Origin: Candidatus Omnitrophota bacterium
GTDB lineage: Bacteria > Omnitrophota > Gorgyraeia > Gygaellales > Profunditerraquicolaceae
Length of the DNA: 64,000 bases
Direction: 5' to 3'
Assembly (NCBI GenBank): GCA_003598135.1
Contig: QZKA01000024.1
Coordinates: forward strand, 619-64,618
Made by a program: the position numbers and the translations under genes. Positions 2,131-60,913 of this stretch are shown here, in pieces. Position 1 is the first letter of the stretch. Each line of letters starts with the position of its first letter. The notes under the pieces were generated by a model that saw only the letters and a program-made list of their open reading frames with translations, did not search any database and was not told the origin of the DNA.

Positions 2131-2246
2131 GTATTGAGTATAGAGTATTGTGTATTGAGTGCGTTTAGCGTAAAACCGCTATATCTCAGATACTACCTTA
2201 ACCTAAGCCTTAACCTTAACCTAAGCCTTAACCTTAACCTGAACCT
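2131..2246. repeat. intergenic modular repeat, copy 1 (module A gtattgagtatagagtattgtgtattgagt plus module B, ccttaacctaagcc tandem units)
   Basis: The same modules recur at 5035, 9012, 11645, 16801 and 18555. This copy sits between the glyQS stop and the ppdK start. Confidence 0.8.
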
Positions 2247-2258
2247 TTATTTCTATTG

Positions 2259-3563
2259 TCATCCGGCCAGTTTCTGCAACAAGTATTCCTTCAGCGAATC
2301 GACGCTGATACGCTCCTGCTGCATTGAATCGCGGTCGCGGACAGTAACCTGCCTGTCTTGGAGTGATTGCACATCTACCGTCACGCAGAAGGGCGTACCT
2401 ACTTCGTCCTGCCGGCGATAGAGCTTTCCTATTGCGGCAGTGTCGTCATATACCGCAACCGTATGTTTCTTAAGGTCTTTTGAGATTGCGCGCGCCATTT
2501 CAACAATCTCAGGCCTGTTTTTCAAAAGTGGCAACACCGCCACTTTTACCGGCGCCAGATCCTTGTGAAGCTTAAGCACCACACGCAGATCGTCTTTAAC
2601 CTTCTCTTCGCTGTAGGCGTCGGTTAAAAACGCAAGGACTGTTCTGTCAACTCCGCCGGATGGCTCAATAATGTAGGGTAAGATCTTCTCTTTCTTGACG
2701 TCGTCGAAAAAGCGCAGGTCTTTCCCTGAGTATTGCGAATGCTGCTTTAGGTCAAAATCCGTACGGTTGGCAATTCCTTCAAGCTCCGACCATCCGAAAG
2801 GAAAATTGTATTCAATGTCGGTGCATGCCTTTGCATAGTGCGCCAGCTCGTCAGGGCCGTGTGCGCGCTTGCGTAAGTTTTCTCTTTTGATGCCAAGATC
2901 GCTATACCAATTGAAATGCAGTTCGATCCACTCTTGAAGCTTTTTATCTGCGTTCTCGGGCCTTACGAAATACTCTATTTCCATCTGCTCGAATTCGCGC
3001 GTCCTGAACGTTAAGTTTCCGGGAGTGATCTCATTACGGAATGCCTTGCCGACCTGCGCAAGGCCAAAAGGAAGCTTCGGGTGCCGTGAGTCAAGGATAT
3101 TCAAAAAATTGACAAACATACCCTGCGCGGTTTCAGGCCTTAGGTAAATGAGGTTTGCCTCATCGATGACTGCGCCCTGGTGGGTTTCAAACATTAAGTT
3201 AAACGGCCTGCTTTCGGTAAGCTCTCCCCTGCATTCCGGGCATTTGCTCTTGTCTTTCAGGTCCGCATCCTTAAACCTTTTTTTGCAGGATTTGCAGTCG
3301 CGCTTGAGGTCAAAAAAATTCTTCACGTGGCCGGACGCTTCCCAGACTTTCGGGTTCATCAGTATTGCTGCGTCCATCCCCAACATGTCATCGCGCTCAT
3401 AGACATTGGTTTTCCACCAGGCTCTCTTTACGTTGTTTTTAAGTTCAACGCCGTACGGGCCGTAATCCCAGGTATTGGCAAGCCCGCCGTAGATGTCGCT
3501 TCCCTGGAAGATAAATCCCCGGCGCTTACATAACGAAACGATCTTATCCATCATATCAGCCAT
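2259..3563 (-). CDS. glyQS: glycine--tRNA ligase (class II, GlyQS type)
   Basis: Translation MADMMDKIVSLCKRRGFIFQGSDIYGGLANTWDYGPYGVELKNNVKRAWW is typical GlyRS. The start was refined to the internal ATG at 3563, which overlaps the upstream gene by 8 nt. Confidence 0.88.
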   Translation of the reverse strand: MADMMDKIVSLCKRRGFIFQGSDIYGGLANTWDYGPYGVELKNNVKRAWWKTNVYERDDMLGMDAAILMNPKVWEASGHVKNFFDLKRDCKSCKKRFKDADLKDKSKCPECRGELTESRPFNLMFETHQGAVIDEANLIYLRPETAQGMFVNFLNILDSRHPKLPFGLAQVGKAFRNEITPGNLTFRTREFEQMEIEYFVRPENADKKLQEWIELHFNWYSDLGIKRENLRKRAHGPDELAHYAKACTDIEYNFPFGWSELEGIANRTDFDLKQHSQYSGKDLRFFDDVKKEKILPYIIEPSGGVDRTVLAFLTDAYSEEKVKDDLRVVLKLHKDLAPVKVAVLPLLKNRPEIVEMARAISKDLKKHTVAVYDDTAAIGKLYRRQDEVGTPFCVTVDVQSLQDRQVTVRDRDSMQQERISVDSLKEYLLQKLAG

Positions 3564-4965
3564 GTTCTTTTGCCTGCCCGTATTTATTGAATTCCTCCGA
3601 ATAGAACATCGCTGCTTCGGAATCGATGATGTCCATTTCAAGGTATCTTCGTATCGAGTCTGCCATAGATTGCATGCGGTATGCGCCGCTGGTCTGGATA
3701 ATGGTCGGCAGCTGGAAAAGCTCATCCTTACGGATGATCCTTTTTACCGCATCATTGGCAATGATGATTTCGGTCGCAAGGAGCCTGCCGGTGCGGTCTT
3801 TGCGCGGTATGAGCAGATGCGAGATTATCCCCTTAAGGCAGTTTGAAAGCTGCGAGAGGGCCTGTTTCCTCGCTTCAAGCGGGAAAAAGCTGACCAGGCG
3901 GTCAATTGCCTGCATGGTATTGGGCGAATGGAAAGAGGCGATTACTAAATATCCGGCTTCTGCCGCAATGAGCGCGGTCCTTACCGAATCGGCATCCTCA
4001 AGTTCTCCGATGACGATAATATTGGGGTCTTGTTTGAGGCTGCTTTTGATTGCTGCGGAAAAGGAATTTGTGTCAACGCCTACTTCACGCTGCTTGATGA
4101 TGCTTTTGATATTAGGATGCACGTATTCGATAGGCCGTTCAAGCGTGATAATAACCGCCCGTTTTTCGCGGTTAATCAGCTCAACCATCGCGGACATGGT
4201 AGTGGTTTTGCCGCTTCCCGTAGGCCCTACCAATAGCACCAAACCATCCCTCTGCCTGGCTAATTCCTGGACTACTGGGGGTATATTGAGCTCTTCAAAA
4301 GAAGAAACTTTTGTATTGATAAGCCTGAATGTCGCTTCCAGGAAGCCTCGTTGTTGGTGCACGTTGATCCTGAAACGGTTGCGGACATCGTATTGAATCC
4401 CGAAATCAAGCTCTTTTTCTTTTTCAAAGCGCCTTATCTGCTGCTTGGTCATAAGGCTGAATAAAATCTGAGGAATTTCTTCGGAGCTAAGGCTTGGGCC
4501 GTTTACTTCTTCCAATTCTCCGTTCACCCGTAAAACCGGGACGTGGTCTGCGAGTATATGCAGGTCAGAAGCGCCTCTTTTGATTGCAAGTTCCAGTAAT
4601 TTACCGACATTAAACCTTTCAATCAGCTGCTGGATTTCCTGTTTATGCGTGTCGTCGAGCTTGGTGAATACAGAACCTAAACCAAACGTCCTGCCTTCAT
4701 CCAGGGCCTCTATCCTTACAATCTTGATTGATGCCTGAATAGCGGTTTCGCTTTTGGGGAGGCGGAAACTGACAGTTGCTTCCATATTCAGAGGGAATAC
4801 CTCTTCGCTCTCCAGATAAATTCCGCCCGTGTTGATATTCGTGGCAAGGAGATTTCTTTCTTTTTTTACGTTCTCCTGGGAGTCCTGGAATGCAAATTTG
4901 ACGTGTATACGGGAATAGAGCCTGTAGTCTTTTCTTCTTTCCGGTATATCGTGCCGAGTCAGCAT
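3556..4965 (-). CDS. PilZ-domain / PilT-like type IV pilus retraction ATPase fusion
   Basis: N-terminal PilZ motifs: RRKDYR, then NINTGGIYL. The C-terminal PilT/GspE core has Walker A GPTGSGKTT. An AAGGAG ribosome-binding site precedes the ATG. Confidence 0.8.
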   Translation of the reverse strand: MLTRHDIPERRKDYRLYSRIHVKFAFQDSQENVKKERNLLATNINTGGIYLESEEVFPLNMEATVSFRLPKSETAIQASIKIVRIEALDEGRTFGLGSVFTKLDDTHKQEIQQLIERFNVGKLLELAIKRGASDLHILADHVPVLRVNGELEEVNGPSLSSEEIPQILFSLMTKQQIRRFEKEKELDFGIQYDVRNRFRINVHQQRGFLEATFRLINTKVSSFEELNIPPVVQELARQRDGLVLLVGPTGSGKTTTMSAMVELINREKRAVIITLERPIEYVHPNIKSIIKQREVGVDTNSFSAAIKSSLKQDPNIIVIGELEDADSVRTALIAAEAGYLVIASFHSPNTMQAIDRLVSFFPLEARKQALSQLSNCLKGIISHLLIPRKDRTGRLLATEIIIANDAVKRIIRKDELFQLPTIIQTSGAYRMQSMADSIRRYLEMDIIDSEAAMFYSEEFNKYGQAKEHG

Positions 4966-5034
4966 GGTATCTCCTTTTTAACGATAAACACAGAGTCGTA
5001 TTTTAGCATACATTGCAAAAAATCGCTATAGATT

Positions 5035-5135
5035 TCGTATTGAGTAGAGGCTCGCTGAAAAGACCGGCTACCTCAATCGTAACCTCAACCTCTCATTTTG
5101 CGTTAGCCTTGGCCTAAGCCTTAACCTTGGCCTTT
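5035..5135. repeat. intergenic modular repeat, copy 2 (A-like cgtattgagtagagg... plus taacctcaacctctcattttgcgttagccttggcctaagccttaacc)
   Basis: Shares the 'taacctcaacctctcattttgcgttagcc' block with the inverted copy at 9012-9135. Confidence 0.8.
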
Positions 5136-5852
5136 CTCTTTATTCTTTTGCAGCGTAGAAATAATTGTGAGTACCTTGTCTATATCCAGTTCTTTCTTCT
5201 TGTCCTTCAGGTACACCTTGAAAAATTCCTGCTTGCTATTTACTATGTCACAATTGAAGTAATTGCCTTCTTTCGTATAGTTGTAGGTAATAAACCCTCT
5301 TTTATCCGCTACGCTAAACCGTGCGATTTTTATGTTACTGCCCGGGCCAATGTCGGGAGTGAAGATGCTTTTCAGTATTACAAAGAGGGTGCTGGGCAGG
5401 TCTTTGATGTCAGGGGTTCTTGCGTTAAGGATGCGGCTTAAGAAATCGTAATTGTTTTTAAGGCTGTATTTTTTAAGCTGCGGGAAAAGCGACTGGAAGA
5501 AATCCGGATTTTGATACAACAGGTAGGCAATCGAATCCTTTTCGGTGCGTTTACGTTTTTTATAATAGGCCCTGTAAATCTGTTCTTTTATTACGAAGAA
5601 ATCCTTTGGGAGCGCTATTTCGATTTCTTCTATTTTATACCTCGCAAGGCTTAAGATATAGTTTTTGTCAATTTGGGGATTGGTAAAGTTTTGCGACGGT
5701 AGAATGCATAATACCGGTATTTTATTGCATGTACCGATACCCATTTCGACATAGGTTTTTAAAACGTACGGCTTGCCGAAGGTGGTCACTGTCAGGATAG
5801 CGGCGCTCCAGACTACTATCCACGGTAAAAATCTAGTGAGTTTCTTTTTCAT
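5121..5852 (-). CDS. hypothetical secreted protein (N-terminal signal peptide)
   Basis: MKKKLTRFLPWIVVWSAAILTVTTFG is a signal-like N-terminus. The gene is AT-rich and no known domain was recognised. Confidence 0.5.
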   Translation of the reverse strand: MKKKLTRFLPWIVVWSAAILTVTTFGKPYVLKTYVEMGIGTCNKIPVLCILPSQNFTNPQIDKNYILSLARYKIEEIEIALPKDFFVIKEQIYRAYYKKRKRTEKDSIAYLLYQNPDFFQSLFPQLKKYSLKNNYDFLSRILNARTPDIKDLPSTLFVILKSIFTPDIGPGSNIKIARFSVADKRGFITYNYTKEGNYFNCDIVNSKQEFFKVYLKDKKKELDIDKVLTIISTLQKNKEKGQG

Positions 5853-6690
5853 CGGGTATCGAATTTTTTAATTTTGAAAATTCTTCCTGCGATATCGAAA
5901 AGCTGTGTGCTTTATCGGGGAACGAGCCGCTTAAGACCTCATTTTTATACCGGATGATTGCTTCCCGCACCTGCGCGGCCACGTCGGCATATTGCATGAC
6001 GAATTTTGGTTTGAAGCCCTTAGACAGCCCGAGTATGTCATGTAGCACCAGGACCTGGCCGTCGCAATAAGGCCCTGCACCGATTCCAATAGTAGGGATA
6101 GAGAGTTTGTTCGTGATGAGTGAGGCGATTTTGTCGGGGACACACTCAAGCACGATAGAGAAACAGCCTGCGTCTTCGGATTCCTTTGCCTGTTGCAGAA
6201 GCTCTGTTGCGCGCTCAGCGTCTTTGCCCTGCACCTTAAACCCGCCGAGTTTATCCGCGGTCTGAGGGGTGAGGCCGATATGCCCCATCACCGGGATGCC
6301 TGCGTTGACAATCTCTTTTATCACAGTAAGGCATTGGGTAAACCATTCTACCTTTACCGCATCGCAGCCCCCTTCTTCTACCAGCCTTTTGGCGTTTCCT
6401 AGTGCCTTGTCGGGTTCAATCTGGTATGCCGAGAAAGGCATGTCAGCGATTACCAGCGCATGTGTTACTGCGCGGCTTACTGCTTTGGTATGATAGAGTA
6501 TTTCTTGTATTCCCACATCTTTTGTCGATTCCAGCCCTAACACTACGTTAGCCAGGGAATCACCTACAATAATTATATCGATACCTGACTGGTCGACCAG
6601 ATAGGCGAACGGGTAATCATAAGCGGTAAGGCAGGTACTTTTTTCTTTATTGTTCTTTTTGCTACGGATATCTTTAATTGTCAACTTCAT
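5833..6690 (-). CDS. panB: 3-methyl-2-oxobutanoate hydroxymethyltransferase
   Basis: LTAYDYPFA...IIVGDSLANVVLG...ADMPFSAY is the PanB signature. Confidence 0.88.
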   Translation of the reverse strand: MKLTIKDIRSKKNNKEKSTCLTAYDYPFAYLVDQSGIDIIIVGDSLANVVLGLESTKDVGIQEILYHTKAVSRAVTHALVIADMPFSAYQIEPDKALGNAKRLVEEGGCDAVKVEWFTQCLTVIKEIVNAGIPVMGHIGLTPQTADKLGGFKVQGKDAERATELLQQAKESEDAGCFSIVLECVPDKIASLITNKLSIPTIGIGAGPYCDGQVLVLHDILGLSKGFKPKFVMQYADVAAQVREAIIRYKNEVLSGSFPDKAHSFSISQEEFSKLKNSIPDEKETH

Positions 6691-6712
6691 GATAAAGGAT
6701 GGTTTCGTGAAG

Positions 6713-8116
6713 CTAGAAGCGCAGCGCAGGAATAAACAGTTGGGCTATTTTGAAATAAATTATTAACCCGCACACATCAACCACGCTTGTGGTAATTGGG
6801 CCTGCCAACACAGCAGGGTCGAGGCCTATTTTTTTCGAAAAAAACGGAAGAAATGTCCCTGTGGCAATAGCGAGTATCGCAATAAAAAGCATGCTTAAGC
6901 CAACGACTATGGCAAGCGTAAAGTCTTTTTGCAGCAGGAATGCCCTGCCGAAGGCGACGGTTCCTACTATTAGGCCCATCAGGAGGGCCGCGCTAAACTC
7001 AAGCTTGATAACCTTGAAGACATTCTTAAAATTCACGTCACCCGTGGCTAGTCCCCTTATAATCGTAATTGAAGTTTGGGCTCCGGCATTTCCGCCGGTG
7101 TCCAAAAGCATGGGGATGAAAAATGCCAGGGCTACGACAGAACTCAATGAATGTTCAAATGCTTTTAAGACTGTGCCGGTCAGAAAATCGAAAATCAACA
7201 GCAGTATCAGCCATCCTGCCCGCCTTTTCACCAATTCAGCGGTGGTGGCGCGCGCGTAACTGATAATCTGGCCACCCTTGGCATCCATTTTACCGATTTC
7301 GTATATATCTTTGGTAGCCTCTTTTTCTATGATATCGACTACGTCATCAATGGTGATAATCCCTACCAGGACGTCGTGGGTATCAACTACCGGCGCATCA
7401 AGTAAATCATATTTTTTGAAATAGCGGGCAACTTCAACGATATCGGTATCGGCATTCACTTTGATCAGGTCAGCGCTTTGCATAATTTCTTTTATCGCGA
7501 TATCGGGAGGGGCCTTTAATAAATCCTGCAGCGCAATACAGCCTCTTAGTTTATGGCCTTCGTCAGTTACAAATACCGAATAAATGTCCCTTGCGTATTC
7601 AGCCCTTAGGTTTTCCTGGATAGAAAGGATAGCTTGCCTGGCAGTCATATCTTTTTTCAACTCGACCATGTCTGTGGTCATCAAACTGCCTGCAGTCCCT
7701 TCGGGATACACCAGTAATTCGCGCAAGTCCTGCGCCTCTTCTTTATTGACCAGGTTGAACAATTTCTTCGAAACCTTATCAGGAAGCTCCTTAAAAAGGT
7801 CGGCTCTTTCGTCAGGAGACATTTCGTTAATAATCTGTGAGATCTCGGTATTGTTAAGGTTGTTTAAAATGAAGGATTGTTCCGAAAACGGGAGGGCTTC
7901 AAATACCTCTATGGCTTTTCTGGAGCTCAAGAGCTTAAATACCAGGATCTTGTCATTAGCCTCAAGGTGACGCCACCCTTCAGCCAGGTCAATGGACCGC
8001 ATTGTTTTGAGCACTAACTTAAGGCCGTTAAAGTCCTTCTTGGAAAGCAGCTGCTTTATTTCGGGAAGGAATAACGCAAATATGTCGACATTGCTTTTTT
8101 TCATACCGTTTTTCAT
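6713..8116 (-). CDS. mgtE: magnesium transporter MgtE
   Basis: MgtE N-domain, tandem CBS region and C-terminal membrane domain, as read from the translation. Confidence 0.85.
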   Translation of the reverse strand: MKNGMKKSNVDIFALFLPEIKQLLSKKDFNGLKLVLKTMRSIDLAEGWRHLEANDKILVFKLLSSRKAIEVFEALPFSEQSFILNNLNNTEISQIINEMSPDERADLFKELPDKVSKKLFNLVNKEEAQDLRELLVYPEGTAGSLMTTDMVELKKDMTARQAILSIQENLRAEYARDIYSVFVTDEGHKLRGCIALQDLLKAPPDIAIKEIMQSADLIKVNADTDIVEVARYFKKYDLLDAPVVDTHDVLVGIITIDDVVDIIEKEATKDIYEIGKMDAKGGQIISYARATTAELVKRRAGWLILLLIFDFLTGTVLKAFEHSLSSVVALAFFIPMLLDTGGNAGAQTSITIIRGLATGDVNFKNVFKVIKLEFSAALLMGLIVGTVAFGRAFLLQKDFTLAIVVGLSMLFIAILAIATGTFLPFFSKKIGLDPAVLAGPITTSVVDVCGLIIYFKIAQLFIPALRF

Positions 8117-9144
8117 GGCACAGCTACCATTTGACCTTCGTTATCACTCTCTACAATGCCGGCTTTTGCGGGGGGATATTTTTTTAACAGCTCTATCCCC
8201 TTCTCCCTGCCTAACACAAATAGGGAAGTAGCCAGCGCATCTGCGGTAAGGCAATCCTCTGCAATGACTGTCACTGAAATTACGCCGCCCTTGGCAGGAG
8301 CTCCTGTTTTGGGGTCAAGAATATGAGAAAAGACTTCATCTCTATTCTTAAAATACTGTTCATAATCCCCTGAAGTGGCTATGGCGCTGTTTTCCATGCT
8401 CATGGTGCTTAAGAAATTCTGTGAACGAGGGTTTTGCACTGCCACTTTCCATGGCGTGCCGAACTTGTTACCTAAACAATATATATCCCCGCCTGTATTA
8501 ATCAAGCAATTTTTTACGCCTGCGGCTTTTATTTTTTTGACTGCCGAATCAACGGCATACCCTTTGGCAATCGCACCCAGGTCAACAGCCATCCCGGGAA
8601 TACTAAATTCTATCACATTATTGTTTTTATGAAAAATAATTTTATCCATACCTACGCGCTTTGACGCCTTCTCAATTTCTTTTCTTTTCGGGACCTTATA
8701 CTGTGTATTGGAAAATCCCCAAATATTCATCAACGGGCCTACCGTAACATCGAATGCGCCGCCTGAGGCTTGCCAGAATTCCTTAGACTTCTGCATAATA
8801 TACCATGTCTCCTTGCTTGCGGCCACCTTGCCGGTTTTGTTCAGCCGGGAAATTTCGCTCTTCTCATCGTATTTGCTTAATAGGGATTCGATCCTCTTTA
8901 TCTCCTCAAAGGCAATGGCAGGCGCCCGTTCGTCAGGTGAAACAACTTCAACAAAGGTGCCCATCATGACGCGAGTTTCCTTATATAGCTTCTGGGGTTG
9001 ACAACCGTTAAATAAGGTTAAGGCCGAGGCTAAGGCCAAGGCTAACGCAAAATGAGAGGTTGAGGTTAAGGCTGAGGTAGCCGGTTTTTCTAGCGTGCTT
9101 CTACTCAATACCCTGTACCCTGCACTCAATACTGAATTTTTCAT
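8113..9144 (-). CDS. apbE: FAD:protein FMN transferase (ApbE family); start ambiguous (9144 or upstream 9318, or internal MMG)
   Basis: ATSGDYEQYF and the TRVMMGTFVEVV start of the mature domain identify ApbE. The N-terminal 40-50 aa, including the putative lipoprotein signal LALALASALTLFNGC, are encoded by repeat copy 3. Confidence 0.8.
   Translation of the reverse strand: MKNSVLSAGYRVLSRSTLEKPATSALTSTSHFALALALASALTLFNGCQPQKLYKETRVMMGTFVEVVSPDERAPAIAFEEIKRIESLLSKYDEKSEISRLNKTGKVAASKETWYIMQKSKEFWQASGGAFDVTVGPLMNIWGFSNTQYKVPKRKEIEKASKRVGMDKIIFHKNNNVIEFSIPGMAVDLGAIAKGYAVDSAVKKIKAAGVKNCLINTGGDIYCLGNKFGTPWKVAVQNPRSQNFLSTMSMENSAIATSGDYEQYFKNRDEVFSHILDPKTGAPAKGGVISVTVIAEDCLTADALATSLFVLGREKGIELLKKYPPAKAGIVESDNEGQMVAVP
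9012..9135. repeat. intergenic modular repeat, copy 3 (inverted orientation; overlaps the apbE 5' end)
   Basis: ggctaacgcaaaatgagaggttgaggtta... and ctactcaataccctgtaccctgcactcaatac are reverse complements of the copy 2 and module A sequences. Confidence 0.8.
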
Positions 9145-10850: not shown

Positions 10851-10864
10851 CTGAAAAACGAAGA

Positions 10865-11638
10865 TTACGCGCGCAAAGGAAGAGCGTCTGCCTTTTGCAT
10901 CCCTTCTAATACCCTTTGCGCCTTGAAACTTCTTTCAAGGTGATAGGTAAGGAAGGCGTTTAAGATTAAATTTAGTTCCCTCTTAATCTGCGGATTTATC
11001 CCTAAATTAAGGTTATTCTTCAGCTCATTCTTCTCGATATGCAGGATAGTGGCAACCGTGCCCCGGAAAATAAGGCGCGCATTTTTGTCTTTATGGTTAC
11101 AGGTAGTGCAGATGAGGCCGCCGAGCGCTAAACTGAATTTTGATTGGCTTAAGATTTTATTGCCGCAGGATACGCAGGAATCCAGGTGAGGCTTAAAGCC
11201 CGATAAGGAGAGAAGCTTTATTTTGAAAATAGTGGTGATTTTCTCCGGATTGGCACATGACCCCAGCTCTTGAAGCGAGGAATGAGCGAGCGAGAATATC
11301 TCTTCGTTCTTTTCTTCGGCAGGCATTACCGCGTGTAATAATTCTATCATTACGCTTGCGAGGCTTACTCTCGTAACATCGCGGCGGATTGCATCAAAAT
11401 TGTTCTTTAGGTCGCACTGACTAACCAGCTGGATATCCGAATTCTGTTTCCGGTAGAAAATAATCTCATTGAGCGAAAATAGATCCACGGAGCTGGCGAA
11501 TTTCTTCGGTTCAGTGCGTATCCCTTTTAATAGGCCGCTGATTTTTCCGAACTCAAGGGTGAAGAAATCCGCAATGAGGGACGTTTCACGAAAGGGCCGG
11601 CGGTTGAGTACTATCGCTTCTGTTTTATGGATCGACAT
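10865..11638 (-). CDS. recO: DNA repair protein RecO
   Basis: N-terminal OB fold (EAIVLNRRPFRETSLIADFFT) and a C-terminal CxxC...CxxC zinc motif. Confidence 0.85.
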   Translation of the reverse strand: MSIHKTEAIVLNRRPFRETSLIADFFTLEFGKISGLLKGIRTEPKKFASSVDLFSLNEIIFYRKQNSDIQLVSQCDLKNNFDAIRRDVTRVSLASVMIELLHAVMPAEEKNEEIFSLAHSSLQELGSCANPEKITTIFKIKLLSLSGFKPHLDSCVSCGNKILSQSKFSLALGGLICTTCNHKDKNARLIFRGTVATILHIEKNELKNNLNLGINPQIKRELNLILNAFLTYHLERSFKAQRVLEGMQKADALPLRA

Positions 11639-11644
11639 TTTGTG

Positions 11645-12080
11645 GTAGAAGGTTAAGGTTAAAGTTAAGTAAGGTTAAGGCCTAGGCTAAGGTTAAGTTT
11701 CGTATTGAGTATAGAGTATTGTGTATTGAGTACAATGACAAATACCAAAGCACCGATGACAGGAATGACAAATCACAAATGACAAAACTCAAATTCCAAA
11801 TAAATCCCAATGCCCAAAGGGCCAATGATAAATTCTAAACGACAAAACCTAATGGGGCGATAATCAATAGCCTATAGTCGATAGACCCTGCAAATGAAAT
11901 TTGCGCATTTATGCCTTGTCATTACGAGAGCTGCCTTAACCTCAACCTCGACCTTACTTAGCCTTAACCTTGACCTTAGCCTATTATAGTACAGTGTCCT
12001 GTATGGGTTATGCGTACAGCGTTACGCGCCGTTCTCCGTACGCATATCGCACTCAATACTCTGTACTCTATACTCACTAC
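11645..12080. mobile_element. composite MITE-like repeat element (~435 bp) with modules A and B at both ends in inverted orientation and a unique core
   Basis: Left end aaggttaagg... then gtattgagtatagagtattgtgtattgagt. Right end ccttaacctcaacc... then cactcaatactctgtactctatactcac. The core atgacaaataccaaagc...caaatgacaaaactcaaattccaaataaatcccaatgcccaaagg recurs inverted at 18700-18860. Confidence 0.6.
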
Positions 12081-12508
12081 TAACAAATATTATTTTTCTT
12101 CAAAATCCCCACTGCCCTTCTGTGCATTTCTTTTTTGCCTTTGGCAGTTTTATCATCAAAGCCCTGCAGATGAAGGATGCCGTGGGCTATATACAAGTAA
12201 AGTTCAAAAAGGGGCGAAGTACCAAACTCAGCCGCATTACGGAACGCCGTTTCAGTCGAAATAATAATATCTGCAGAAAACTCCTCTTTTTTTACGCCAA
12301 GCTCAAACGCTAATACGTCAGTGGGTTTTTTCTTGCCAAGAAAGCGGGAATTCAGTTTTTGTATCTGCGCGTCGTTTACGAAGCAAAAAGTCAATTCACC
12401 GGATTTTTTTAAGTCCCTGCGGGATAAGGCGCTAAAGGTTAACTTCTTTATCCTTGTCGGATTGATGGGAATTTTCTTTTGCAGGTTTTTTATGATTATT
12501 CTCAACAT
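12080..12508 (-). CDS. ybeY: endoribonuclease YbeY (rRNA maturation factor)
   Basis: HGILHLQGFDD matches the HxxxHxxxxxH zinc motif, and the N-terminus aligns with YbeY proteins. The start was chosen at MLRIII, which leaves about 77 nt of overlap with the upstream gene. Confidence 0.8.
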   Translation of the reverse strand: MLRIIIKNLQKKIPINPTRIKKLTFSALSRRDLKKSGELTFCFVNDAQIQKLNSRFLGKKKPTDVLAFELGVKKEEFSADIIISTETAFRNAAEFGTSPLFELYLYIAHGILHLQGFDDKTAKGKKEMHRRAVGILKKNNIC

Positions 12509-13877: not shown

Positions 13878-14844
13878 ATGCCTGGATTATTTTCTGGACA
13901 AGTTCGTGCCTGACGATATCCTCTCCTGTCAAAAATACGAATTTGATGCCTTCTATGTCGCGCAATATCTCCTGCGCCTGCAACAGCCCGATAGGCTTGC
14001 CGTCGGGCAGGTCGCTCTGCGTAATATCTCCGGTAATGACCGCTTTTGAATAAAACCCGATCCGGGTCAAAAACATTTTCATCTGCTCTGCGGTCGCGTT
14101 CTGTGCTTCATCGAGGACAATAAAGGCGTCGTTTAAGGTCCTGCCTCTCATATATGCAAGCGGCGCCACTTCGATGATCCCTGTTTCGATATATTTTTCT
14201 ATCCTTTCGGCATCCATCATGTCGTAAAGGGCATCATAGAGCGGCCGCAGATAGGGTGAGATTTTTTCATACATGTCCCCTGGCAAAAAACCAAGAGATT
14301 CACCGGCTTCGATTGCAGGCCGGGTAAGGATGATACGGCGCACTTCCTGTTTCTTGAGGGCCTCTACGGCTTGGGCCATTGCCAGGTATGTTTTTCCGGT
14401 ACCTGCTGGCCCGACTCCAAAAACTATGTCGTACTTCTTGATTGAATCAATGTATTCCCGCTGGCCCTTGGTCTTTGGCCCGATTGTCTTTTCGATGCCG
14501 AGCTTAGTTGAAGTTAAGGGCACCCTCTGATGTTTCTTTTCTCTCTTCAATTCTTCCCTTGCGTAATGCGGCACGCGCGGTTCTTCCTGCGGGCTCCTAA
14601 TGGAATCAAGTAGATCTTCTAGGTATTTGCGTGCCTTGCTGATCCTGACAGATGAACCGGATATCTGGAGATGGTTATCATGTATGGTCAGGCGGACCTT
14701 CAGTTCTTCTTCCAGCCTTTTTAGGCTTTCATCAAACCGCCCGCACAGCTGCTGTACTTCCGCAATGCTTTCTAACTTAATGATTTTTTTCACTGTCCCG
14801 TTATTTAAATTTCTGCATGCCTTCCGTAGCAACGGGCCCTTCAA
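13855..14844 (-). CDS. phoH: PhoH-like ATPase (YbeZ)
   Basis: GVGPAGTGKTYLAMAQAV...ILTRPAIEAGESLGFLPGD. Confidence 0.85.
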   Translation of the reverse strand: MKGPLLRKACRNLNNGTVKKIIKLESIAEVQQLCGRFDESLKRLEEELKVRLTIHDNHLQISGSSVRISKARKYLEDLLDSIRSPQEEPRVPHYAREELKREKKHQRVPLTSTKLGIEKTIGPKTKGQREYIDSIKKYDIVFGVGPAGTGKTYLAMAQAVEALKKQEVRRIILTRPAIEAGESLGFLPGDMYEKISPYLRPLYDALYDMMDAERIEKYIETGIIEVAPLAYMRGRTLNDAFIVLDEAQNATAEQMKMFLTRIGFYSKAVITGDITQSDLPDGKPIGLLQAQEILRDIEGIKFVFLTGEDIVRHELVQKIIQAYEHANRQ

Positions 14845-15388
14845 CAGGTATAACCAGTGTTTGTCCGGGGTAAATCTTATTGGGAGCTTTTAGGGTATTT
14901 TTGTTCGCCTCAAAGATCTTTTGCCATTTTTTTGTCGTTCCAAAAAATTTAAGGGAGATTTTTTGAAGCGTATCGCTTTTCTGGACTTTGTAGTTTTGAA
15001 AACTTGCTTTTTTGGCTGCTTGCGCGGGTTCGGCAATTTCAGGCGCATAGCTACTTGAGATATACCCACGGTTGCCCCACGCTTCTTTGTCTTCGGTTTT
15101 TTCGGCAATAGTTCCCCTCATAGCGACCTTTGAAGCGCTCTCTGAAGACGCAGGTGTTTTTTCAAATTTGAGCGGTGAATGTAATTCCATCTCAACCACC
15201 CTTAAGGAACGGGTAGCTTTACGGTCGGCCTTCTCGCCTGCAACAGGCCTGCCCTTAAGATAGCCACGGTTTCCCTGCAGATCCTGATCAACCCTGTTTT
15301 TTGTCGTTTGATACGTCCTCACCACGCAACCGGAAAGCAAAAACGCCGATGCCAAGAGCACAAAATACATTTGTTTTAGCGAATTCAT
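14801..15388 (-). CDS. LysM-domain lipoprotein
   Basis: Lipoprotein signal MNSLKQMYFVLLASAFLLSGC and a C-terminal LysM domain (YKVQKSDTLQKISLKFFGTTKKWQKIFEANKN...YPGQTLVIP). Confidence 0.7.
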   Translation of the reverse strand: MNSLKQMYFVLLASAFLLSGCVVRTYQTTKNRVDQDLQGNRGYLKGRPVAGEKADRKATRSLRVVEMELHSPLKFEKTPASSESASKVAMRGTIAEKTEDKEAWGNRGYISSSYAPEIAEPAQAAKKASFQNYKVQKSDTLQKISLKFFGTTKKWQKIFEANKNTLKAPNKIYPGQTLVIPVEGPVATEGMQKFK

Positions 15389-15389
15389 A

Positions 15390-16784
15390 CTAAGCCTCCT
15401 TTTTTTTGGCTAAATTGATTTTTAATTCTTTGAGCTGCCTTGCGTCAACCTCTGAAGGTGCTTGTGTAAGCGGACAGAATGCCTTCTGCGTCTTCGGGAA
15501 GCCGATTACTTCCCGGATACTCGCCTCATTGGCAAGTATTGCCAAGAGCCTATCTATGCCGAATGCGATACCTCCGTGCGGAGGCGCGCCGTATTGAAAC
15601 GCATCCAGAAGAAAACCGAAACGCTTGCGTGTTTCTTCATGCTGAATGCCGATTATCTTGAAAATCATTTCCTGAAGCGCCTGTTCGTGGATCCTTATCG
15701 AGCCGGAACCGATTTCCATGCCGTTTAATACTAGGTCATAAGAACGGGATAACGCCTCTGCTGGATTCGTTTCAAGCTTTTCAGCCTGGAGCGGATGTGG
15801 CGCAGTAAAAGGATGGTGTTCGCTCTCCCAGCGTTTTTCTTCATCATTATATTTAAACAGCGGAAAATCAACAACCCAGGCAAAGGCTAATTCCAGGCCC
15901 GACTCCTGCCGTAAGTCCGGCTTGTCGCTGGAATACCTGCGCATCGCCTCTTTATAAGAGATGCGCGGGAACGGCGTTTTTAACTCGATACCCTTTACCT
16001 TCTTTATTATTAGATACATCAATTCCTCTGTCAAACTAAATATATCCTCTTCGTTGACGAAGGACATTTCGATATCCAGCTGGGTAAATTCTGGCTGGCG
16101 GTCAGCGCGCAGGTCTTCGTCGCGGAAACATTTTGCGATCTGGTAATACCGTTCAATGCCTGAGACCATAAGGATCTGCTTGAATAGCTGCGGCGACTGG
16201 GGAAGCGCGTAAAATTGACCGGGGTTAAGCCTTGAAGGGACTAAATAATCACGCGCGCCTTCCGGTGTCGATTTAGTAAGTATGGGGGTTTCACATTCAA
16301 TAAAGTCCTTTTCCGCCAAAAAGGCCCTCATGACCTTATACACCTTGTCCCTCAAGGTAAAATTAGAAAAAACGTTTTTTCTGCGTAGGTCAAGATACCG
16401 GTACTTAAGCCGTAGTTCTTCGTCAATAGGTAGGTCCTCTTTTATCTCAAACGGCGGGGTGAGGCTGGGGTTGAGGATCTTAAGCCCGGTTGCAAGAATT
16501 TCTATTTCTCCCGTAGGCAACTTTGGATTGAGGGTACCTTGTGGTCTTTGATTTACCTTGCCGTTGACCATGACTACGTATTCATCCCGCAGCGTCTGTG
16601 CGGACTTATACGCCTCGCCGATATCTTTGGGGATAAAAACTACCTGGGTAAGGCCATACCTGTCCCTTATATCTATAAAAATAAGCTTACCGTGGTCGCG
16701 CCTGCTGGCAACCCAGCCGCATAGCGTTACTTCGCTACCGATGTCTTTCGCCGTTAATTCACCGCATGTGTGGGAACGTAGCAT
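15390..16784 (-). CDS. aspS: aspartate--tRNA ligase, short form lacking the GAD insertion domain
   Basis: Class IIb core with the bacterial-type motif FRDEDLRADRQPEFTQLDIEMSF and GGIAFGIDRL. At 464 aa it is well short of the ~590 aa typical of bacterial AspRS. Confidence 0.8.
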   Translation of the reverse strand: MLRSHTCGELTAKDIGSEVTLCGWVASRRDHGKLIFIDIRDRYGLTQVVFIPKDIGEAYKSAQTLRDEYVVMVNGKVNQRPQGTLNPKLPTGEIEILATGLKILNPSLTPPFEIKEDLPIDEELRLKYRYLDLRRKNVFSNFTLRDKVYKVMRAFLAEKDFIECETPILTKSTPEGARDYLVPSRLNPGQFYALPQSPQLFKQILMVSGIERYYQIAKCFRDEDLRADRQPEFTQLDIEMSFVNEEDIFSLTEELMYLIIKKVKGIELKTPFPRISYKEAMRRYSSDKPDLRQESGLELAFAWVVDFPLFKYNDEEKRWESEHHPFTAPHPLQAEKLETNPAEALSRSYDLVLNGMEIGSGSIRIHEQALQEMIFKIIGIQHEETRKRFGFLLDAFQYGAPPHGGIAFGIDRLLAILANEASIREVIGFPKTQKAFCPLTQAPSEVDARQLKELKINLAKKKEA

Positions 16785-16800
16785 TTTGTTAAAAAATTAC

Positions 16801-16950
16801 TTAAGGTTGAGGTTAAGGCTAAAGGTTAAGTAAGGTCAAGGATTAGGTAGTGAGTTTAGTGTATGGTGGTATGTTATTGGCCAAAAGAAAAACAACACCA
16901 ATTACCTTACCCAACAACCAAACCGACAACCTTACCTTTACCTAACTACT
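16801..16950. repeat. intergenic modular repeat, copy 5 (aaggttaagg-type units and degenerate ccttacc units)
   Basis: ttaaggttgaggttaaggctaaaggttaagtaaggtcaagg lies between the aspS start and the hisS stop. Confidence 0.7.
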
Positions 16951-18205
16951 TTACCTGATAAATAGCACCGATTTCCTGGATCATTTGTTCAATCTTAACT
17001 TCCTTCTGTTGCCCCGACTGCATATCTTTTAGGCTGATTGTTTCTTTACTCAACTCGTCTTCTCCCAGGATCGCTACAAACCTGGCATTGAAATCATTTG
17101 CTTTGCGCATTGCGCCCTTAAGGGATTTGCTCTCGTAATCTGTATCAGCAGCTATTCCATGATTACGTAAATTATTAAGAATCTTAAACCCTTCTTCCCT
17201 GGCCCGGTCGCCCAAAAGGATCAAAAAAACGAGCGGTTTAGGCGCAGGAATTACCTTTTCTTCTTTACACACCAACAATAATCTTTCTATCCCGAACGCA
17301 AATCCACACGCCCCTTTGTCAGGGCCGCCAAGCTCCTGAGTGAGAGTGTCGTACCTGCCGCCTGCGCCGAGTGCATCCTGCTGGCTCTCAAGTGACTTGT
17401 GTTTGAATTCAAACACCGTGCCCGTATAATAATCAAGGCCCCTGACCAATAAATGCGAAACTTCGTACTTGACTCCTAGCGCACCAAGCCCTTTCTTGAC
17501 CAGTTCAAAGTGCTGTGCGCATTCTTTGCATAAATGTTCGTTTTTAAGGCCGAGGTCTTTAACAAGGGCGCGGCAGGATTCATTTTTGCAATCAAGGATC
17601 CTGAATACATTGCGCTCATAACGCGCCCGGCATTCTTCGCAAAACCGCCCGACCTTGCCTTTAAGCGCAGCTCGTAATAGGTCTGAAAATTTCTTTTTGT
17701 CCTGCGGACAGCCAAGGCTGTTTAAGTGCAGGGTGTAGCCATCGATAAAAAAACGAGTAAGCAGGGTATTTGCCAGCGAGATAACCTCGACATCTACATA
17801 GGGGTCCTTTGAGCCGATTGCCTCACAGCCAATATGATGAAATTGCCTGAATCTTCCCTTTTGCGGACGTTCAAGCCTAAACATAGGGCCAATGTAATAT
17901 AGTTTCGAAAACGGCTGCTGCTTATCAAGGCTATTCTCAATATAGGCACGGACAATTGAGGCAGTAGCTTCTGGCCTGAGCGCGAACTCATCATCGCCTT
18001 TTTTTACTAGAAACATCTGTTTCTGGACGATTTCTGCGGTTTCCCCCAAAGATCGATTGAATAAAGACGAATCTTCAAGTAATGGAGGGCGCATCTCTTT
18101 ATAATTATAGAGATTGAATACTTCCCTGCTGATTGCTTCCAGGCTTTGCCATAGACTGACTTGTGCAGGCAGGATATCTTTTGTTCCGGCTACTCTTTTA
18201 AACAT
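16946..18205 (-). CDS. hisS: histidine--tRNA ligase
   Basis: The MFKRVAGTKDILP N-terminus and class IIa motifs across the length identify HisRS. Confidence 0.88.
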   Translation of the reverse strand: MFKRVAGTKDILPAQVSLWQSLEAISREVFNLYNYKEMRPPLLEDSSLFNRSLGETAEIVQKQMFLVKKGDDEFALRPEATASIVRAYIENSLDKQQPFSKLYYIGPMFRLERPQKGRFRQFHHIGCEAIGSKDPYVDVEVISLANTLLTRFFIDGYTLHLNSLGCPQDKKKFSDLLRAALKGKVGRFCEECRARYERNVFRILDCKNESCRALVKDLGLKNEHLCKECAQHFELVKKGLGALGVKYEVSHLLVRGLDYYTGTVFEFKHKSLESQQDALGAGGRYDTLTQELGGPDKGACGFAFGIERLLLVCKEEKVIPAPKPLVFLILLGDRAREEGFKILNNLRNHGIAADTDYESKSLKGAMRKANDFNARFVAILGEDELSKETISLKDMQSGQQKEVKIEQMIQEIGAIYQVK

Positions 18206-18208
18206 AGA

Positions 18209-18481
18209 TTATTTTATCTTTTTCTTCATTTCGAGGCCGGGCTTGAAGACTACTACTTTGCGGGGCGGAACAGGAACGACTTGACCTGTGCGCGGATTTC
18301 TGCCGGTTCGGCTTCTTCTCTGTTTTATTTTAAAAACGCCGAAATTCCTCAGCTCTATTTTTTCCCCGCGCACCAGAGCGTCTATTATGCAGTCGAAACA
18401 TTTTTGCACAACTCTTTTTACATCGGTTTGCTTCAGGTTAGTATCGTCAGAAATTTTCAGGATGATATCTTTTTTAGTCAT
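18209..18481 (-). CDS. hup: HU/IHF family DNA-binding protein
   Basis: MTKKDIILKISDDTNLKQTDVKRVV...GRNPRTGQVVPVPPRKVVVFKPG. Confidence 0.85.
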   Translation of the reverse strand: MTKKDIILKISDDTNLKQTDVKRVVQKCFDCIIDALVRGEKIELRNFGVFKIKQRRSRTGRNPRTGQVVPVPPRKVVVFKPGLEMKKKIK

Positions 18482-18554
18482 TTTTCCCTCCATTTTTTTC
18501 AGGCTAACTACGCAAGTATAGTATCAACAAAATGTTACGATGTCAATAGAATTT

Positions 18555-18892
18555 GTATTGAGTATAGAGTATTGAGCATAGAGTAAAAACAAACCATTCG
18601 GGAAATTCTAAACTCTAAGTCTTAAATTCTAAACAAATTTCAAATCCCAAGCGTTAAATCACAAATAAGCTCCAAATCTCAATCACCGAATTACCAAAGC
18701 GGGACAGTTTCGGCCATTGGTCCTTTGGGCATTGGGATTTATTTGGAATTTGAGTTTTGGAATTTGTGATTTGTCATTTGCCTGCCTGCCGCCTGTCCGA
18801 CGCCTGCCTGACGGCAGTCAGGGCAGTCAGGATAGGCAGGGTGCTTTGGTATTTGTCATTTACTCAATACACAATACTCTGTACTCAATACG
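18555..18892. mobile_element. MITE-like repeat element (~340 bp) bounded by inverted module-A copies, with the copy 4 core inverted inside
   Basis: gtattgagtatagagtattgagcatagagta at the left and tactcaatacacaatactctgtactcaatacg at the right. The internal tttgggcattgggatttatttggaatttgagttttg...gctttggtatttgtcatt is the reverse complement of the 11745-11830 core. A GC-rich palindrome cctgacggcagtcagg lies at about 18805-18835. Confidence 0.6.
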
Positions 18893-18893
18893 A

Positions 18894-22337: not shown

Positions 22338-22413
22338 GGTTTGGAATGAGATAATTTAAACTATCGGCTATGGACTATCGACTATAAGCCCATCTAAAGA
22401 ATTGCGTAGTAAC

Positions 22414-48621: not shown

Positions 48622-48648
48622 AGGAATGTTAGGCCTTACAGCCTTACT

Positions 48649-49629: not shown

Positions 49630-49641
49630 ACATTCTAATTT

Positions 49642-50784: not shown

Positions 50785-50829
50785 TTAAGATTTAATGTTT
50801 CTTGCAGCTAATTTTGCGTTTCGGTCCGG

Positions 50830-51807: not shown

Positions 51808-51819
51808 CGGAGGCGTAGT

Positions 51820-53663: not shown

Positions 53664-53698
53664 CCTATGTTACTATGCTTCTACTTTCTCAGCCGTAT

Positions 53699-55783: not shown

Positions 55784-55793
55784 AATGGCGTTA

Positions 55794-57649: not shown

Positions 57650-57651
57650 CT

Positions 57652-60905: not shown

Positions 60906-60913
60906 TTAAAAGA

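Follow-up and report, generated by a model that had tools for sequence, protein, structure and literature searches.

Tandem heptamer arrays are among the commonest simple-sequence repeats of bacteria. In cyanobacteria, the STRR repeats that Mazel and colleagues are said to have described in 1990 reportedly consist of tandem heptamers in many intergenic copies per genome, and 35 years after their description heptamer arrays are not known to have an accepted function or origin. The arrays analysed here resemble the STRR in these respects, but the STRR units are different (CCCCAGT, TTGGTCA, CAACAGT) and were defined in heterocystous cyanobacteria, and the likeness is one of description, with no sequence relationship expected. 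The small dispersed repeats of Nostoc, attributed to Elhai and colleagues in 2008, reportedly nest in one another and in other intergenic repeats; compared by description, they share with our loci tiny nesting modules that encode no enzyme, while having other sequences and another host phylum. In Streptococcus pneumoniae, BOX elements follow the plan boxA-boxB(n)-boxC, with modules of 45-59-nt unique sequence. Our elements are likewise modular and intergenic, with unlike ends, a variable middle and either orientation, but BOX modules are not simple-sequence arrays and there is no homology. MITEs such as Correia and Nezha are also small, dispersed and intergenic, and their likeness extends to the inverted ends and apparent nesting of our long copies; our loci, however, show neither target-site duplications nor empty sites, have no full-length form that stays constant and, among the Pfam-called ORFs of the contig, no cognate transposase.

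A REP sequence is an imperfect palindrome of 20-40 nt that is headed by GTAG/CGTC and mobilised by RAYT transposases (PMC3733652). The loci described below recall the BIME, REP and REPIN elements of Escherichia coli in being extragenic, hairpin-forming mosaics that lie between operon genes in varying combinations and orientations, and for BIME and REP roles in mRNA 3′-end protection and termination have been proposed (PMC3116915, PMC3733652). In contrast to the REP unit, the building blocks here are tandem arrays of 6-7 nt that are not palindromic, and no RAYT was found among the contig ORFs with Pfam calls. The closest described systems are the heptanucleotide long simple-sequence repeats (LSSRs; Mrazek et al. 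2007, to the extent that they are covered in PMC4679880) and the TAACTGA arrays of Beggiatoaceae, Cyanobacteria and Bacteroidetes (MacGregor 2015, PMC4679880). The shared traits are 7-nt units arranged head to tail, a nearly always intergenic position, mixing with other heptamer arrays, a patchy occurrence across phyla with no evident vector, and indels between relatives in 7-nt steps. Our arrays differ in unit sequence and in forming the edges of composite elements with hairpin cargo; moreover, they abut stop codons in the G-rich sense, whereas TAACTGA arrays lie just upstream of start codons.

Here, we analysed a 64-kb window (the whole stretch of DNA under study) of a contig from Candidatus Omnitrophota. 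An earlier note had placed a repeat family at six loci (2131-2246, 5035-5135, 9012-9135, 11645-12080, 16801-16950 and 18555-18892), and all six carry the claimed repeats far beyond chance. In the window, the module A 20-mer GTATTGAGTATAGAGTATTG has 8 matches with at most 3 mismatches against 0.00 expected, the module B 20-mer 6 against 0.00, and GTATTGAGT 11 exact matches against 0.32, all of them inside 2131-18891. The three modules of that note, namely A, B and a core common to the two long copies (11764-11827 versus 18715-18778, 64 nt, 95% complementary), were recovered, and two further modules, D and E, were found. Module A does repeat, but Tandem Repeats Finder shows a plain period-7 array of GTAnnGA heptamers (GTATTGA GTATAGA GTATTGT GTATTGA, 4.3-4.4 copies) where gtattgagt and atagag units had been proposed. 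Module B is tandem as claimed, with hexamers (AAGGTT/CCTTAA, period 6, up to 8.8 copies) in place of the ccttaacc, ctaagcc and cttggcc units. As in LSSRs, both modules are runs of 5-11-nt head-to-tail units longer than chance. No two loci share a full-length architecture; the arrays form the element edges in either orientation, and between them lies interchangeable hairpin cargo (core, D hairpin, E mini-hairpin or GC-rich hairpin). The features are as follows.

2131-2160, plus strand: locus 1 module A, GTATTGA heptamer array, 4.3 copies
2161-2194, unstranded: locus 1 spacer, small stem TAGCG...CGCTA
2195-2247, minus strand: locus 1 module B, AAGGTT/AAGGCT hexamer array, 8.8 copies
5037-5134, plus strand: locus 2 98-nt unit, A remnant, central segment and interrupted B array
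9001-9144, minus strand: ApbE lipoprotein signal peptide, Met1 to Cys48, coding; includes locus 3
11649-11697, plus strand: locus 4 outer module B, AAGGTT-type array adjoining the RecO start at 11638
11702-11732, plus strand: locus 4 inner module A, identical to 2131-2160
11733-11930, plus strand: locus 4 core cargo, junction, hairpin arms and module E tip
11934-11982, minus strand: locus 4 inner module B, plus-strand reading CCTTAA
11983-12050, unstranded: locus 4 GC-rich spacer hairpin, GCGTACGG...CCGTACGC
12051-12081, minus strand: locus 4 outer module A, beginning at the YbeY stop codon on the gene strand
16801-16850, plus strand: locus 5 module B, AAGGTT-type array adjoining the AspRS start at 16784
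16851-16945, unstranded: locus 5 module D hairpin, GGTAAGGTAATTGGTG...CACCAATTACCTTACC type
18552-18585, plus strand: locus 6 module A, immediately upstream of the HU promoter
18586-18860, unstranded: locus 6 cargo, heptamer-built arms AAATTCT/AGAATTT, core, GC-rich hairpin and junction
18861-18893, minus strand: locus 6 second module A, starting on the gene strand 2 nt past the DnaE stop at 18894
22360-22389, minus strand: seventh locus (GuaA to DnaE gap), module E heptamers TAGTCGA/TAGTCCA

At locus 1, module B begins about 12 nt past the ProRS stop (2259, minus strand), and module A, which on the gene (minus) strand is a G-free TCAATAC array, ends about 10 nt 5′ of the Shine-Dalgarno site of the pyruvate phosphate dikinase gene. 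Locus 2 combines an A remnant (5037-5050), a central segment whose minus strand has a weak terminator-like stem (5066-5084) and the interrupted B array (5080-5134), which furnishes the stop codon (5121) of a 243-aa gene. In locus 4, the cargo comprises a 21-nt junction, AATGACAAATACCAAAGCACC (11734-11754), heptamer-based hairpin arms common to locus 6 (11764-11827) and a module E mini-hairpin nested at the tip (11856-11886); the inner module B pairs with 11649-11697 in the minimum-free-energy fold, and the junction of the YbeY stop with the outer module A reads TAG TAG TGA GTA TAG on the gene strand. Locus 5 is without module A and has module B with hairpin D instead; on the gene strand, the C-poor arm of D starts at the HisRS stop (16946). 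In the locus 6 cargo, 18715-18778 is the core copy, 18780-18831 the GC-rich hairpin and 18840-18860 the 21-nt junction, the last being 100% complementary to 11734-11754, and the adjacent HU promoter lies at 18546-18518 on the minus strand. The idea that the short copies are solo ends had to be abandoned, as they are complete array-hairpin-array units, one of them being coding sequence.

The complementary edges at loci 4, 5 and 6 allow very long intercistronic RNA or DNA hairpins to form. Loci 4 (dG -139.8, z = -5.2) and 6 (dG -128.1, z = -8.8) fold better than shuffles, and loci 1-3 and 5 do not. Thus, of the terminator or mRNA-stabiliser role proposed earlier, the part concerning the long hairpins may hold, but the role is not supported for loci 1-3; the long hairpins may plausibly act as REP/BIME-like barriers or processing sites. 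Only the weak 5-6-bp stem with a T-run in the 98-nt unit of locus 2 resembles an intrinsic terminator, terminator-like sites were not above shuffles (29 observed versus 26.1), and Rfam covariance models gave no match in the gaps, even at E <= 1. Among the matches listed, sense and antisense folding energies did not differ (41 versus 35, p = 0.29) and thus give no sign of selection at the RNA level.

The contig and three syntenic relatives form a compact natural experiment, with variable arrays and cargo in a constant set of genes. In the independent assembly L115 (99.8% identical) these elements recur without any indel, so the structure is not an assembly artefact. Across three species, the same gaps retain their flanking arrays while the central hairpin cargo differs, a given cargo type occupies different loci in different species, and hairpins nest within hairpins. 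The gap orthologous to locus 5, for example, is 51 nt long in the relatives and holds module E in place of D; the GC-rich spacer hairpin of locus 4 is missing from the orthologous gap of L120; and module E of the seventh locus is present at the same position in L114. Arrays differ across species by whole units and not at all between the 99.8%-identical strains, and between sister species the unit itself can be replaced wholesale at the same locus (GTAnnGA to GTAnnGC). The modules also occur at unrelated loci of related Omnitrophota, between tRNA-Lys and tRNA-Leu in L060 and, in L116, at TruA to MarC and GlgC-like to GNAT, which establishes a dispersed modular family and not a single segmental duplication. 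An identical 55-nt segment of module A plus junction is common to locus 4, locus 6 and L116, which appears to come from the same relative as L120 and L121, the ApbE of which is 81% identical in protein.

Across bacteria, the module A 20-mer was found at more than 111 loci among the matches listed, where at least 7 named groups are represented (Bacteroidota, Omnitrophota, Patescibacteria, Planctomycetia, Ignavibacteria, Opitutales and Fischerella), and it had no match in 2.9 million viral contigs. This cross-phylum sample was picked by the exact 20-mer, with crude ORF calls, so that its figures hold among the matches listed and part of the conservation within the 20-mer stems from how the sample was ascertained. 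Among these matches, 109 of 114 arrays were intergenic, period 7 dominated (262 of 459 arrays, with period 14 in 60 of 459), and the TAACTGA unit of MacGregor was the next commonest, its arrays co-occurring in loci that carry GTATTGA arrays. The claim of an undescribed family survives in that we found no description for Omnitrophota, but module A is not specific to the family, and repeats of its kind had been noted earlier (Mrazek 2007, MacGregor 2015).

The arrays follow an orientation rule, by which on either strand G-rich, C-poor arrays lie 5′ of C-rich, G-poor ones. The rule holds at 6 of 6 window loci and, among the matches listed, in 24 of 27 gaps (p = 5e-5), including the convergent gaps at 8:0. 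In the same matches, stop-adjacent arrays have G>C by 41:12 and start-adjacent arrays C>G by 31:4, a polarity also seen there for heptamers outside the selection pattern, and, of 67 A arrays, 45 have their start no more than 30 nt from the upstream stop codon. Stop codons abound in the G-rich, C-free arrays, which usually begin at the upstream stop or directly behind it; the C-rich, G-free arrays take the last position, adjoin the next ribosome-binding site or promoter, and cannot hold AUG, GUG, UUG or a Shine-Dalgarno motif. Translational inertness of this kind accounts well for the polarity at co-directional gaps and only weakly for the 8:0 at convergent gaps. To our knowledge, neither this polarity nor the swapping of cargo has been described before. 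If genome-wide, the polarity rule would constrain all models of repeat origin and action.

The arrays are one lineage's version of the LSSR/STRR-like heptamer-repeat phenomenon found across many bacterial phyla. Our main reading, to which we assign a probability of roughly 0.6, is that the loci are mosaics of arrays of the heptamer simple-sequence kind, which recombination has shuffled between loci and selection on translation signals has filtered, that they may serve as intercistronic hairpins, and that they are not transposons. Slippage would add or remove whole units, and arrays at separate loci could provide the homology arms needed for gene conversion or template switching, which would copy, invert and nest cargo between loci, with selection retaining only the arrangements that are harmless to gene expression. 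The finding reveals no new molecular machine; it offers three testable regularities, namely a strand-symmetric stop/start polarity, conserved array edges around swappable hairpins, and an array recruited as a signal peptide.

An alternative, which we regard as unlikely, is that the loci are selected cis elements whose GUA (and AAGG) arrays are candidate multivalent binding or cleavage sites, on RNA or DNA, of a conserved protein. Candidates for this protein, which would control intercistronic processing, termination or translation, include RNases, RNA chaperones, Rho, and nucleoid or recombination proteins. Counting against our main reading, the exact identity of the 20-mer across phyla and of the 55-nt junction across species goes beyond what slippage and neutral drift predict and hints at a sequence-specific factor or transfer, and the 20-mer is absent from viral contigs while being present in several phyla. 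Consistent with selection, Sphingobacteriaceae species retain arrays at orthologous stop codons, and the arrays keep strictly to their position and polarity with respect to stops and starts. The C-rich, G-free arms would be similar to Rho-loading sequences, and GU|AUU would suit the preference of RNase E; heptamer arrays alter recO and recF expression in Nostoc (bioRxiv 10.1101/2022.06.06.494920), and binding of S1, Csp or CsrA was proposed for TAACTGA arrays by MacGregor (PMC4679880). Against this stand the wholesale switch of unit sequence between sister species, the coexistence of many unrelated heptamer units, the lack of a folding advantage of the sense strand, and the contribution of ascertainment to the 20-mer's conservation. 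A bolder version appears more doubtful still: a trans-acting system common to Bacteroidota, Omnitrophota, Patescibacteria, Cyanobacteria and others would recognise the 7-nt-periodic GTA arrays, spread them and their cargo between intergenic sites, use them to set transcript boundaries and leave the G-rich-first polarity as its footprint; it could be a protein that binds or cleaves RNA, or a recombination enzyme.

That loci 4 and 6 are full MITE-like, non-autonomous transposons with module A terminal inverted repeats, the short loci being solo or decayed copies and the transposase lying elsewhere in the genome, is improbable in our view. Inverted A arrays of 33-38 nt (82% complementary) do bound both loci, locus 4 appears nested, with an inner A-core-B unit within an outer one, three loci in two species share an identical 55-nt end, and cargo varies at orthologous sites. 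However, any two oppositely oriented arrays form inverted repeats, which would by itself account for the inverted ends of the long copies. The target-site duplication sought at loci 4 (flanks TTTC/TAAC) and 6 (ATTT/GATT) was found at neither, and MAG207, L114 and L120 hold no empty site, their orthologous gaps keeping the flanking arrays around other modules. The commonest unit has unlike ends (A and B′; loci 1-3, L060, L116), end arrays differ in unit number and sequence (GTAnnGA versus GTAnnGC), and module A is also found alone in many phyla. No transposase, nor any RAYT (Y1 transposase), was seen among the contig ORFs with Pfam calls, 22.4-30.9 kb of the window being judged from a relative's annotation. 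The earlier view of the long copies as MITE-like elements is not supported. A local segmental duplication or assembly artefact limited to this contig has next to no chance: the window copies do all lie within 2.1-22.4 kb and a scan of a metagenome collection gave just 2 loci (a count that is uninformative because the window's own contig was not returned), but the idea is refuted by the identical structure in L115, the unrelated loci of other genomes and the loci of module A across phyla.

Returning to the mosaic reading, one repeat copy has been absorbed into a gene. Locus 3, which had been placed in a gap between genes, is part of the ApbE gene, which starts at 9144 with an ATG overlapping the PolX stop (ATGA). 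Its A heptamers (9103-9135) form the n-region of the signal peptide and the hexamers complementary to module B (9014-9078) encode its (Ala-Leu)n h-region. The central part of locus 2 is, in this lineage only, the reverse complement of this segment (5037-5134 versus 9014-9111, 98 nt, 86% complementary, including a 35-nt exact stretch). A genome-wide polarity rule would help annotators to spot gene-model errors such as truncated ApbE calls. The ApbE homologues keep the lipobox L-x-G-C-Q...LYK[DE]TRVMMGTF, and the frame is open in three species even though heptamer numbers differ (roughly 5, 10 and 4).

The repeats in the window are a real, clade-specific mosaic family built on widespread, poorly understood heptamer arrays, and their main interest lies in a polarity rule and in an array-hairpin-array architecture with swappable cargo. 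The sequences that an earlier note had described at six loci are present exactly at all six (approximate boundaries below), alongside a seventh locus:

2131-2247, locus 1
5037-5134, locus 2
9012-9135, locus 3
11649-12081, locus 4
16801-16945, locus 5, carrying module D, a hairpin
18552-18893, locus 6, with a GC-rich hairpin inside
22360-22389, seventh locus, module E, with heptamers TAGTCGA/TAGTCCA

Module A (heptamer arrays) and module B (hexamer arrays) form the edges of the elements. In the window, their 20-mers matched 8 and 6 times, respectively, against 0 expected in each case, and GTATTGAGT matched 11 times against 0.32 expected. Tandem Repeats Finder resolved module A as a period-7 array of GTATTGA/GTATAGA/GTACAGA units (about 4.4 copies) and module B as a period-6 array of AAGGTT/AAGGCT units, CCTTAA on the other strand (at most 8.8 copies). 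The arrays enclose an interchangeable central hairpin, or cargo. The core reported as common to both long copies corresponds to inverted matches of 64 nt (95%) and 21 nt (100%) that link locus 4 to locus 6, and module E is also nested in its tip in locus 4. Loci 2 and 3 are inverted copies of each other over 98 nt (86% identity). The arms of the D hairpin are degenerate short repeats that are not reliably alignable between copies.

Between 1 and 24 kb, the minus strand carries every gene, all of them housekeeping (source MAG proteins RJO64314-RJO64319; JGI sample 3300007354), in the gene-strand order GuaA, DnaE, HU, HisRS, AspRS, LysM, PhoH, HD, YbeY, RecO, PolX, ApbE, MgtE, PanB, hypothetical, PilZ-ATPase, ProRS and PPDK. 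Arrays occupy 6/6 non-coding gaps of at least 40 nt in this interval, and the few gaps at 24-64 kb are without them. The claim that the repeats lie in gaps between genes holds for five loci but not for locus 3, whose reading frame is open. The starts of RecO (11639-11650) and AspRS (16785-16800) are without a recognisable Shine-Dalgarno site and have G-poor CCTTAA-type arrays directly 5'; GGAGG-type sites are present at PPDK and HU.

Module A arrays are an instance of a known heptamer-repeat phenomenon and are not clade-specific. The 20-mer query GTATTGAGTAYAGAGTATTG matched more than 111 loci, a lower bound, with hosts among the matches listed being mostly Bacteroidota, followed by Omnitrophota, Patescibacteria, Planctomycetia, Ignavibacteria, Opitutales and Fischerella. 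Phage carriage is unsupported, since the same 20-mer had no match among 2.9 million viral contigs. Among the matches listed, 109/114 arrays were intergenic, 45 of the 67 with a co-oriented upstream gene started no more than 30 nt past its stop, and period 7 was dominant (262 of 459 tandem arrays, with a further 60 of period 14), TAACTGA, MacGregor's unit, being the next most common unit. Mrazek 2007 and MacGregor 2015 (PMC4679880) had already described such repeats, and a later study examined them in Nostoc (bioRxiv 10.1101/2022.06.06.494920); these papers do not settle what the repeats do. The description of the family as new stands in part: a literature search with the literal arrays returned only an irrelevant paper on chloroplasts, and one for Omnitrophota together with repeats returned nothing pertinent, but the class to which module A belongs was already known. 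Across species of Sphingobacteriaceae, arrays are kept at orthologous stop codons, the differences between them amounting to whole units. A composite of (CTAACTA)n, TTTTTGA, (GTATTGA)n, AGATAGATTCTGCTTCAT.. and (CAGATAA/CTGATAA)n recurs in six Sphingobacteriaceae loci (L048, L054, L084, L091, L098, L108), so that mosaics combining arrays with a unique segment exist in other lineages too, each in its own form. In L117 (about 1380-1760; Ga0138256_10043006), a long array of (GTATTGT/GTATTGA)n units is followed by CTATCAA heptamers, about 20 in tandem, and far exceeds in length any array of the window.

The arrays obey a polarity rule, by which G-rich/C-poor arrays stand 5' of C-rich/G-poor arrays. 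Among the matches listed, stop-adjacent arrays had G>C on the sense strand by 41:12 under strict criteria, and start-adjacent arrays had C>G by 31:4; both skews also hold for heptamers outside the search pattern. Where a gap contained both kinds, the G-rich array lay 5' of the C-rich one in 24/27 cases (p = 5e-5), and convergent gaps followed the rule 8:0, again among the matches listed, as did 6/6 window loci. Because a hairpin reads identically on either strand, the rule is strand-symmetric, and replication-strand skew therefore cannot explain it. Start-proximal arrays are nearly devoid of AUG/GUG/UUG on the sense strand (0.1, versus 3.1 on the complement, in the GTATTGA family). We infer that selection on translation signals acts as a filter: G-free arrays would be incapable of making false start sites or Shine-Dalgarno motifs and C-free arrays would be rich in stop codons, so that only the G-rich-first order would be harmless beside genes. 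A putative alternative is that transcribing the G-rich arm first keeps C-rich single-stranded RNA from being exposed to Rho. The idea that the G-rich arrays serve solely as a "stop-codon battery" was rejected because the GTAnnGC arrays of the related Omnitrophota genome MAG207 mostly lack stop codons.

The elements may also act as RNA. Folding, proposed earlier as a check, surpassed dinucleotide shuffles at locus 4 (dG -139.8 kcal/mol, z = -5.2) and locus 6 (dG -128.1 kcal/mol, z = -8.8) but not at loci 1, 2, 3 and 5 (z -1.4 to +1.3). Sense versus antisense folding across phyla, a test of RNA-level selection, gave 41 vs 35 (p = 0.29, not significant), and the repeats had no Rfam match at the gathering threshold or at E <= 1. 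A REP/BIME-like RNA barrier role is plausible, if unproven, for the long hairpins only. Promoter and terminator consensus scans returned as many sites as shuffles, and only two features stood out, the HU promoter and, within the 98-nt unit, a weak stem. The former, a strong sigma-70-like promoter of the HU/IHF-like gene (18518-18546, minus; TTGACA, 17 nt, TACTAT, TG extension), follows immediately downstream of the locus 6 element, and L113 and L114, from two of the relatives described below, also have it conserved.

Comparison with relatives revealed constant edges and turnover of the middles, the source samples being JGI 3300007354, 3300038436 and 3300029288. MAG207 (GCA_040754255.1; L113, L119, L060) has genes 79-92% identical to those of the window at the nucleotide level; L120 and L121 (JGI sample 3300029288) appear to represent a second relative, with an ApbE protein 81% identical to the window's, to which L116 probably also belongs; and L114 derives from yet another genome (GCA_028717045.1), with an AspRS that shares a 90%-identity protein cluster with the window's. 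In orthologous gaps, the edge arrays are retained and the middles differ. Between the hypothetical gene and PilZ-ATPase, 3/3 species have (AAGGNN)n, cargo, (..TAC)n and a conserved promoter, the cargo being a 60-nt segment in the window, the D hairpin in MAG207 and, in L120, the core hairpin, whose tip holds the E mini-hairpin. The HisRS-AspRS gap of the window measures 161 nt (B-D-B'); in MAG207 and L114 it measures 51 nt and is occupied by module E. Where the window has GTAnnGA arrays 3' of the DnaE, YbeY and PolX stops, those of MAG207 are GTAnnGC. Identical cargo types occur at different loci in different species. A metagenome scan with a module A 24-mer returned two loci and yielded L116; the window's own contig was absent from it, so it gives no copy count for this genome. 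That the repeats form a family not confined to the window is borne out by cargo modules in unrelated settings: L060 has them between tRNA-Lys and tRNA-Leu, and L116 at TruA-MarC and GlgC-like-GNAT. Only the window's clade carries module B and the cargo modules.

The apparent nesting within locus 4 and a 55-nt module A-plus-junction segment, identical in locus 4, locus 6 and L116, would suit the MITE-like elements proposed earlier, but this reading has a small probability: no target-site duplication was found by inspection, the relatives show no empty sites, the two ends of the commonest unit are dissimilar, the arrays at the ends differ in sequence and in how many units they hold, and the proposed transposase search saw none among contig ORFs with Pfam calls. 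Rather, the mosaic family would be generated by slippage and inter-locus recombination. Contingency (phase-variation) loci were judged unlikely because the flanking genes are housekeeping and unit number is constant between 99.8%-identical strains, the elements of the window and of L115, from a separate sample, being identical without indels (5 SNPs/1331 nt of gaps; 0.19% elsewhere).

At locus 3, the repeats overlap coding sequence. The ATG of ApbE (FAD:protein FMN transferase) overlaps the PolX stop (ATGA at 9144), and the frame through the locus translates as MKNSVLSAGYRVLSRSTLEKPATSALTSTSHFALALALASALTLFNGCQPQKLYKETRVMMGTF... The long gene model is correct, since Omnitrophota ApbE homologues all have a lipoprotein signal peptide, ending L-x-G-C-Q...LYK[DE]TRVMMGTF. 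Its (Ala-Leu)n hydrophobic core is encoded by CCTTAA-type hexamers read GCC-TTA, and the heptamers encode its n-region or, at a minimum, provide a TTG start. In three species this frame stays open, although heptamer numbers differ (roughly 5, 10 and 4 by our own count). Gene models of ApbE disagree (window 8113-9144, minus; L120 3428-4444): calls measure 343-352 aa in the window and MAG207 and 284 aa in a relative, the shorter one being truncated, as the long form has both the signal peptide and the conserved lipobox. The central 60 nt of locus 2 are the reverse complement of the signal-peptide coding segment, only in the window's lineage, which indicates copying between loci 3.9 kb apart. The N-terminal extension SLAYSVERIAYS of another Omnitrophota ApbE (P0126, 378 aa) resembles translated GTATAGC/GTATTGC heptamers. 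Its sequence suggests that heptamer arrays precede ApbE, or sit inside its 5' end, in further Omnitrophota too.

Elsewhere in the window, consecutive radical-SAM (PF04055) paralogues, at least 12 in number and about 306-694 aa long, form an unusually dense run (47278-63825, minus) interspersed with ORFs that lack annotation and a DUF483-like one, and short direct-repeat families recur across the same interval.
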